Positions 2,535 through 2,577 of a stretch of 14,640 bases of DNA are shown here, piece by piece; the first letter of the stretch is position 1; each line of letters begins with the position of its first letter. The position numbers and the translations under genes are program-made. Where the stretch lies: the IMG/VR virus record IMGVR_UViG_2630968342_000015; one strand, 5' to 3'. The notes below the pieces were generated by a model. It worked only from the letters and a program-made list of their open reading frames with translations, was not told the DNA's origin and did no database searches. Origin of the DNA: a virus. Lineage: Duplodnaviria; Heunggongvirae; Uroviricota; Caudoviricetes.

Positions 2535-2577
2535 AAAAAAGCAAAGCCCCGCAAGTGTCATTACCACTCGCAGGGCT
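2535..2577 (-). terminator. Strand-specific minus-strand terminator/attenuator hairpin upstream of the Arc-like gene
   Basis: Minus-strand RNA forms a 13-bp stem (AGCCCUGCGAGUG / CACUUGCGGGGCU, two G-U wobbles), 7-nt loop, then UUGCUUUUUU. The plus-strand version has two mismatches (C-A, A-C) and no U-run. Confidence 0.5.

Follow-up and report, generated by a model that had tools for sequence, protein, structure and literature searches.

The window, which is the whole 14,640-nucleotide stretch of DNA that was analysed (IMG/VR record IMGVR_UViG_2630968342_000015), is a chromosomal phage satellite of E. coli. Its tested stretch is 100% identical to strain G1/2 and to strains of O157:H7, in which the island lies between roxA and phoQ and carries the annotation 'prophage Sp7; untypable' in strain Sakai. 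The satellite genes encode an integrase, AlpA, an Icd-like protein, a DUF4222 protein, a D5-type primase, SSB and PerC; after PerC come the genes for major capsid protein, prohead protease, portal, head completion, HNH, TerS and TerL proteins. There are no tail genes in the gene set of the window, and the predicted gene content is that of a capsid-forming PICI. A blastn comparison with the phage collection gave no match, and a profile search of contigs with the Icd alignment returned only four loci. AlpA has been described as the on-switch of E. coli capsid-forming PICIs and P4-like satellites, and the literature on capsid-forming PICIs treats the region downstream of alpA as a single variable gene of unknown function. 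In the window, the region after alpA appears instead as a compact switch made up of a divergent putative repressor of the ribbon-helix-helix (RHH) type, two putative operators, a predicted early promoter and a small RNA transcribed antisense to the start of the first early gene. Elsewhere in the window, between perC and the capsid genes, a near-identical pair of terminator-like hairpins on the plus strand, separated by 354 bp (AGCCGGAGAAATCCGGCT at 6467-6484 and AGCCGGAGCAATCCGGCT at 6821-6838, both with a T-run after them), brackets a 100-aa ORF (6508-6810).

The first gene of the early operon (2608..2805, plus strand) is annotated by PGAP and encodes an Icd-like protein of 65 aa, which matches NCBIfam NF033153 with 64.7 bits against a cutoff of 25 and is the presumed target of the antisense RNA. 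Its Shine-Dalgarno (SD) sequence, GGAG, is at 2599..2602 on the same strand. The predicted early promoter, TTGACA-18-TAGCCT (2467..2472 and 2491..2496, plus strand, score 11.0), would start the mRNA at about 2503, and a hexamer of the form TTGAC(A/G/C) is present in every variant of the immunity module. Two direct copies of GTGGTCACCT (2474..2483 and 2509..2518, no strand assigned), with the core GTGnnCAC and 35 bp apart, flank the -10 region of this promoter and are putative operators of the RHH protein. From island to island, the dinucleotide at the centre of GTGnnCAC (GT; AC/GC; TA) varies in step with changes in the RHH protein, which is how pairs of operator and repressor specificities would be expected to look. 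The 43-aa RHH gene itself (2282..2413, minus strand), the divergent putative repressor, is HicB/YlcI-like by weak matches to both families, and its homologues in other genomes lie on the same strand and are annotated as HicB or as members of the YlcI/YnfO family. A 62-aa gene (orf62, 2239..2051, minus strand) ends together with the RHH gene at a terminator (1929..1961, minus strand, identified by its fold and U-run) that closes the RHH-orf62 operon.

The order of elements is common to every variant of the module: the RHH gene on the left, then the operators and promoter, a hairpin that belongs to the minus strand, the SD sequence and the first early gene. The upstream modules have been shuffled independently of the hairpin variant, and blastn breakpoints fall exactly at the U-tract of the hairpin (2536/7) and just past a conserved CTAACCAACAAC (2591). 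PGAP also annotates a plus-strand ORF of 247 aa at 1839..2582 (WP_001304194.1; ECs_1576 in Sakai), which has no Pfam or NCBIfam match, is missing or broken in several relatives, and would overlie the RHH gene, the 62-aa gene, the promoter, both operators and the antisense RNA with its terminator. Synonymous-site periodicity was unusable against this ORF because the third codon positions of both frames coincide. The ORF is probably not a gene, and ECs_1576/WP_001304194.1 would be a mis-annotation carried through thousands of genomes.

Structure and conservation of the minus-strand RNA

The hairpin between the operators and the early operon (SL2; 2543..2579, minus strand) has a 15-bp stem with eight G-C pairs and a 7-nt loop, GUAAUGA, and was ranked by a consensus scan as the top terminator-like site of the window (tail GCTTTTTTAA). 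It is followed on the minus strand by a U-tract (2535..2542, GCUUUUUU) that places the 3' end of the RNA at about 2536. The first-pass annotation had described, at 2535-2577, a 13-bp stem with two G-U wobbles that pairs fully only as minus-strand RNA; this stem proves to be the inner part (2577..2545) of the 15-bp stem, its wobbles are U2572.G2550 and G2569.U2553, and a third, G2579.U2543, closes the full stem. The fold of the minus-strand RNA has a free energy of -27.9 kcal/mol (z -6.4; 0 of 200 shuffles as good), compared with -16.3 kcal/mol and two A.C mismatches for the plus strand. The U-run, too, is confined to the minus strand as described, the downstream sequence on the plus strand (CUAACCAACAAC) having none. 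The same annotation had reported a similar asymmetry for the hairpin at 1928-1955, which is reproduced by folding (-21.7 kcal/mol on the minus strand versus -13.8 on the plus strand, with a U-run on the minus strand only), and had placed SL2 upstream of an Arc-like gene; in the minus-strand sense, SL2 does lie upstream of the RHH (Arc/HicB/YlcI-like) gene at 2413..2282.

Upstream of related genes, the SL2 hairpin was found in 19 distinct forms that have the same strand asymmetry, which places it far beyond a chance occurrence. In all but one of these variants the tail after the hairpin contains four to seven U per 10 nt, compared with one in 10 on the plus strand. The anatomy of an intrinsic terminator, namely a G+C-rich stem-loop followed by a U-tract, is thus present on the minus strand only, and SL2 is the Rho-independent terminator of a discrete antisense RNA. 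The apical portion of SL2, about 18 nt (2550-2572 and its relatives), occurs as at least four unrelated sequence types between near-identical flanks; such diversity seems to exceed what drift would be expected to produce, and may be due to recombination or to selection for distinct loop specificities.

The whole antisense RNA, delimited by a covariance model and by published crosslinking, is about 80 nt long (2536..2615, minus strand) and folds as two adjacent hairpins, SL1 and then SL2. It is complementary to the 5' untranslated region, the SD sequence and the first eight nucleotides of the Icd-like coding sequence; its position takes in both the SD sequence (2599-2602) and the ATG (2608-2610). 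With an early mRNA that starts at about 2503, the entire antisense RNA would be complementary to the leader. The covariance model (R1) scores 91.4 bits here, on the minus strand, and this is its sole strong match in the window. SL1 (2581..2613, minus strand) has a stem formed by 2613..2604 with 2591..2581 and a 12-nt loop (2603..2592), in which an anti-SD sequence, CUCC, occupies 2602..2599; its 3' half is the conserved GGUUAG, read on the plus strand as CTAACCA. SL1 is more stable on the minus strand in all 35 distinct sequences (-11.2 versus -4.7 kcal/mol), with a mean z of -3.2 against shuffles, and the anti-SD sequence is unpaired in 23 of 32 SL1 sequences.

Both helices were recovered by RNAalifold from 31 distinct relatives. 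In this set 98.7% of cells are paired, compared with 39-47% in slid registers, and the observed value was reached by 0 of 500 shuffles; two pairs are fully compensatory (AU/CG and GC/CG), and the non-Watson-Crick cells on the minus strand comprise 73 G.U and no A.C. When the identical pairs are read as plus strand, merely 85.6% are standard. A second set was assembled from pattern scans of IMG/VR, filtered for real hairpins (about a quarter of the 15-mer pattern matches were chance occurrences without a hairpin and were discarded) and searched with the covariance model built from the first alignment. Its 50 distinct sequences, in an alignment (A4) fitted to the model, are 99.2% paired, with compensatory change at 10 pairs and 139 G.U against no A.C, although in both sets the sequences are related and mosaic and their counts do not represent independent events. 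At the base of SL1, a G.U pair of the minus strand in 40 of the 50 sequences becomes a C.A mismatch within a 5-bp helix on the plus strand. Because both helices stay paired through G.U and never through A.C, selection acts on the minus-strand RNA, and the structure is under selection specific to that strand.

The predicted antisense promoter and published crosslinking data

A predicted -10 hexamer, TATGAT (2621..2626, minus strand), lies within codons 5-7 of the Icd-like gene, 17 bp from a predicted weak -35 hexamer, TTGTGT (2644..2649, minus strand). The predicted start of TTGTGT-17-TATGAT is near 2614, and its score is 9.8, a value of a kind that is not rare in this window. In the family of RNAs, the 5' nucleotide of SL1 was placed by its pairing to GGUUA, and TAnnnT was then sought at each offset from -12 to +12. 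Of 67 distinct sequences, 49 have the motif at the offset that places its end exactly 7 nt upstream of this nucleotide; every other offset in that range has only zero to five matches. Seven different hexamers occupy this position (TATGCT, TATGAT, TAGACT, TACAAT, TAGAAT, TATAAT and TAATAT). Among icd-like genes of the MRNH class, which also have an extended -10 (TGgTATGAT), the distance from hairpin to ATG is greater by 6 nt, and the -10 shifts with SL1. The predicted -10 hexamer tracks the RNA structure, and not the reading frame. Matches to the -35 consensus are weak across the family (two to four of six positions). Because an invariant His codon is overlapped by the predicted -10, conservation among the closest relatives is due in part to coding constraint; for suppression of synonymous change in the icd codons, the available sequences are too alike to be informative.

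Tandem immunity modules were found at six loci (L067:787-871, minus strand; L045, L050, L064, L069 and L081). Their second, upstream module copy lacks the rest of icd, of which only the first 15 or so codons are left, and retains the RHH gene, the operators, the early promoter and the full antisense unit: terminator, SL1, -10 and -35, the last two separated by a 17-bp spacer that differs in sequence. These icd-less copies look like a natural deletion that delimits the RNA unit. Two other candidate promoters were rejected: TTTACA-17-TAGTTT (start near 2586) has its hexamers in variable positions, and the crosslinked span begins at 2615; the gene that contains a far promoter, at 2865..2838, is not conserved together with the hairpin. 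Within the Icd-like coding sequence, the plus strand has a terminator-like hairpin (2643-2663; CACACAAACGGCCTTTGTGTG then GCGTTTTCTG) that overlaps the antisense -35 and the conserved HTQTAFVWRF motif; it could be a site of attenuation of the early mRNA, or a product of chance.

The RNA can be recognised in published RNase E CLASH data from O157:H7 Sakai (Waters et al., PMC5286369, Table EV2). Row 158815-2_16 of that table joins asECs1576 (1597315->1597288) to asECs1577 (1597367->1597312), with 196 unique hybrids, overlap in the replicate data and a dG of -26.8, and both of its halves overlap Hfq-CRAC sites (PMC5286369). The read, AATGACACTTGCGGGGCT|AGAAGCCCTGCGAGTGGT, consists of the 3' and 5' arms of the hairpin in the minus-strand sense. 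With an offset of 140 between the coordinates of the paper and NC_002695.2 (fixed by a single-read row for the small RNA candidate EcOnc54, both loci together allowing 139-143) and with window position equal to NC_002695.2 position minus 1,594,892, the span 1597367..1597288 converts to 2615..2536, the same as that of the RNA predicted from sequence. Its 3' limit, 2536, is in the U-tract, and is the limit of a read cluster and not a dedicated mapping of 3' ends; the 5' limit, taken from a cluster of CLASH read halves, could reflect processing by RNase E. A minus-strand RNA of the predicted span exists in vivo. One further CLASH read in the minus-strand sense, over approximately 1964..1941, belongs to the other terminator, that of the RHH-orf62 operon. 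The antisense RNA is absent from the 63 orphan Hfq-bound small RNA candidates of Tree et al. 2014, a weak negative. EcOnc59 and EcOnc51 were considered as possible matches and set aside, being located elsewhere (ydhC-cfa and the late region of Sp12, respectively). The literature search did not find the RNA sequence verbatim in the text of any paper.

Proposed role and alternative explanations

The hairpin is, with high probability, the terminator of a genuine antisense small RNA. That this RNA represses the Icd-like gene is somewhat less secure and is nonetheless favoured, and it would probably serve as an extra brake on the first early gene. In the proposed mechanism, a sigma-70-type promoter within the first Icd-like codons would start the RNA near 2615; transcription would cross the start codon and the SD sequence and end at SL2 and its U-tract, before the operator/promoter region and the RHH gene. 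The RNA would pair with the leader of the early mRNA, perhaps through an initial loop-loop contact, and this pairing would block translation of the Icd-like gene, after which polarity or cleavage of the duplex would lower the expression of downstream early genes. A brake made of RNA would thus be added to a switch governed by a protein repressor. SL2 would at the same time prevent antisense polymerases from reaching the operator region or the repressor gene, and the convergent promoters, about 112 nt apart, may interfere with each other. P22 sar, P1 c4/icd and IS10 RNA-OUT offer analogues of such a mechanism. If it operates, the RNA would be a second, testable layer of control over induction of the satellite and over a putative inhibitor of cell division. 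The RNA already shows up in published crosslinking of RNase E and Hfq, and yet it has neither a name nor an Rfam family.

Of the two functions that the first-pass annotation had proposed for the hairpin, termination of an antisense RNA that opposes the early operon is supported by the conserved -10 about 80 nt upstream, by the position of SL1 over the SD and AUG, and by the CLASH span of 2615-2536; the minus-strand 3' ends were to be sought near 2535-2545, and that span ends at 2536. The other function, that of a leader attenuator for the repressor transcript, has no support. It would have the RHH gene transcribed from the promoter inside icd, with the hairpin acting as a regulated leader terminator, in a PRE-like mode of establishment. 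The predicted antisense promoter does aim at the RHH gene, which lies 120 nt past the terminator, and there is no strong RHH promoter between 2535 and 2413, where the best candidate is TTGCTT-18-TAAGGT (score 7.8). However, the repressor gene of other module variants has, by inspection, its own -10 (TATACT) beyond the early promoter, and the hairpin, at -27.9 kcal/mol and with a good U-tract, is a strong one. SL1 and SL2 fold side by side and independently, so that no competing anti-terminator fold was seen; the 3' limit of the RNA that was recovered is 2536, within the U-tract; and SL1 displays an anti-SD sequence for icd that would be needless in an attenuator leader. Regulated attenuation is improbable for these reasons, while low-level read-through into the repressor gene may occur.

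About as improbable is that the terminator merely stops spurious antisense transcription from entering the operators and repressor, its short RNA being functionless. The terminator is always located between the early genes and the divergent repressor module, and insulation is a real consequence of that location; but insulation leaves unexplained the conserved SL1 with its minus-strand wobbles, the anti-SD sequence in its loop and the -10 fixed at 7 nt, as well as the retention of promoter, SL1 and terminator together where icd has been lost, and the association with RNase E and Hfq sites. That the hairpin works from the plus strand, in the 5' untranslated region of the early mRNA, for example to stabilise or process the transcript or to mask the start codon, is the least probable of the alternatives. 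The hairpin is located in the predicted early leader, which can form mirror-image hairpins (-22.1 kcal/mol, z -2.2) in which AACCA pairs with the start-codon UGGUU and the SD sequence is in the loop. Against this, the wobbles of the minus strand are all G.U (73 to 0 in the first set and 139 to 0 in the second) and would be A.C on the plus strand, the C.A mismatch at the base of SL1 recurs in 40 of 50 distinct sequences, the plus strand has no U-run, and the CLASH reads are minus-strand in sense.

Distribution and comparison with known systems

The 80-nt sequence was matched in 776 of 5,426 complete E. coli genomes, including O157:H7, with up to four copies per genome. Model R1 also detects full-length members (33-82 bits) before unrelated first genes: an HNH_3 endonuclease gene (55.5 bits), GIY-YIG-like ORFs (for which the Pfam support is below cutoff), an ArdC-N-like ORF (27.9 bits) and a gene for a small CxxC protein. 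One copy on a phage-like contig directly follows a terminase-like ORF. Diverged members (33-40 bits) on phage-like contigs, at L116:4768-4850 (minus strand), L116:11382-11467 (plus strand), L302:308-392 (minus strand) and L150:5154-5239 (plus strand), precede GIY-YIG-like, HNH_3 and ArdC-N-like genes, a pattern suggestive of a cassette that travels together with selfish or harmful genes. A broader and decidedly speculative proposal is that the antisense promoter, SL1 and the terminator form a portable gatekeeper cassette, fused to the first codons of potentially harmful first genes across satellites and phages, with the hypervariable SL2 apex and the SL1 loop as determinants of specificity. 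Icd-like division inhibitors, the HNH_3 endonuclease, GIY-YIG-like and ArdC-N-like proteins and antirepressors may be its cargo. Specificity of this kind would resemble plasmid incompatibility or the heteroimmunity of P1 and P7, and, if the proposal is true, co-resident islands (up to four copies per E. coli genome) would cross-silence or escape each other.

A search of the window against Rfam found nothing at gathering score or at E<=10 that supports a family; the best match, the Pseudomonas rnk leader (E 0.08), was rejected because it rests on the terminator alone. There was no match in the window to RF01695 (C4/P4 CI RNA) at gathering score or E<=10, nor to RF01394 (isrK/P4 seqA-type leader). 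The positive controls for RF01695 scored 72-78 bits in L003, L033, L034 and L086, and those for RF01394 scored 61.6 bits in L003 and L086. The C4 RNAs of these sister islands (L033:2808-2895, L034:2845-2933, L003:2247-2435 and L086:2259-2447, two of which have isrK too) lie directly upstream of a second class of icd-like genes, with the N-terminus MATTP..., and the window has neither C4 nor isrK. C4 and isrK have been described as immunity RNAs in Gram-negative PICIs (PMC10111431), with which their presence in the sister islands agrees. Model R1, conversely, found nothing in the C4-type loci. The presence of C4 at loci in which model R1 finds nothing indicates that two different RNA solutions for icd-like genes exist in one element family, in which control of icd-like genes by RNA is the rule. 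Among the proteins of relatives, three assigned to the 'ash family' (P0040, P0055 and P0111; Pfam PF10554) are icd-like ORFs extended upstream, and the part that matches the Ash profile (...GYANPAQSTASE...) resembles a translation of the C4 RNA region; part of PF10554 may therefore describe an RNA gene read as protein.

A parallel in layout is EcOnc54, an orphan Hfq-bound small RNA candidate of O157:H7 Sakai, in prophage Sp6 (L338:17253-17334, equivalent to NC_002695.2 1577252-1577333, minus strand; Tree et al. 2014), for which no published function was found in the literature searched. Like the antisense RNA of the window, it has two hairpins and is on the minus strand; it is flanked by a divergent regulator (ECs_1556) on one side and by the first gene, in this case an antirepressor (ECs_1557), on the other, with a -10-like TATACT inside codons 3-4, an SL1 that has the anti-SD region in its loop, and a terminator, GAAGCCC...GGGGCUUC. 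In the RNase E CLASH data EcOnc54, too, is represented by an intramolecular hybrid (152 hybrids). Its match to model R1 extends over the full model length and is borderline (25.6 bits, E of about 0.001), with low sequence similarity; it differs in belonging to a lambdoid prophage, in having an antirepressor as target and in lacking the GGUUAG motif.

Comparison may also be made with the immunity RNAs of other elements. C4 of P1/P7 and CI of P4 (with isrK/seqA) resemble the antisense RNA in that they control icd or early genes and hence immunity, but they point the same way as their target, are released by processing of a shared transcript and depend on a short loop complementarity, whereas the RNA of the window comes from the opposite strand with its own predicted promoter and terminator. 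In the immI region of P22, which has the small RHH repressors Arc and Mnt, sar, a cis-antisense RNA of about 69 nt, is made from a promoter oriented toward the early/antirepressor promoter and stops at an intrinsic terminator; it is complementary to the ribosome-binding site of the gene that it controls. The RNA of the window is like sar in being a short cis-antisense RNA over a ribosome-binding site, with an intrinsic terminator and a small RHH repressor nearby. There is no sequence or Rfam relationship between them, however, and the place of ant as target is taken by an Icd-like gene, the first of a satellite replication operon, the predicted promoter is inside the target coding sequence, and the RNA consists of two adjacent hairpins with an anti-SD sequence in a loop.

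IS10 RNA-OUT, SymR, Sok and similar RNAs come from promoters that lie in, or adjacent to, the 5' end of a harmful gene and fire backward; each is a stable stem-loop RNA with complementarity to the region of translation initiation. The antisense RNA of the window has the same layout of a countertranscript at the 5' end, but it shares neither sequence nor context with these RNAs, Icd-like proteins do not count as classical type I toxins, and no role in post-segregational events or transposition is suggested for it. Unnamed, and absent from Rfam and from genome annotation, the antisense RNA is in kind a classical countertranscript.
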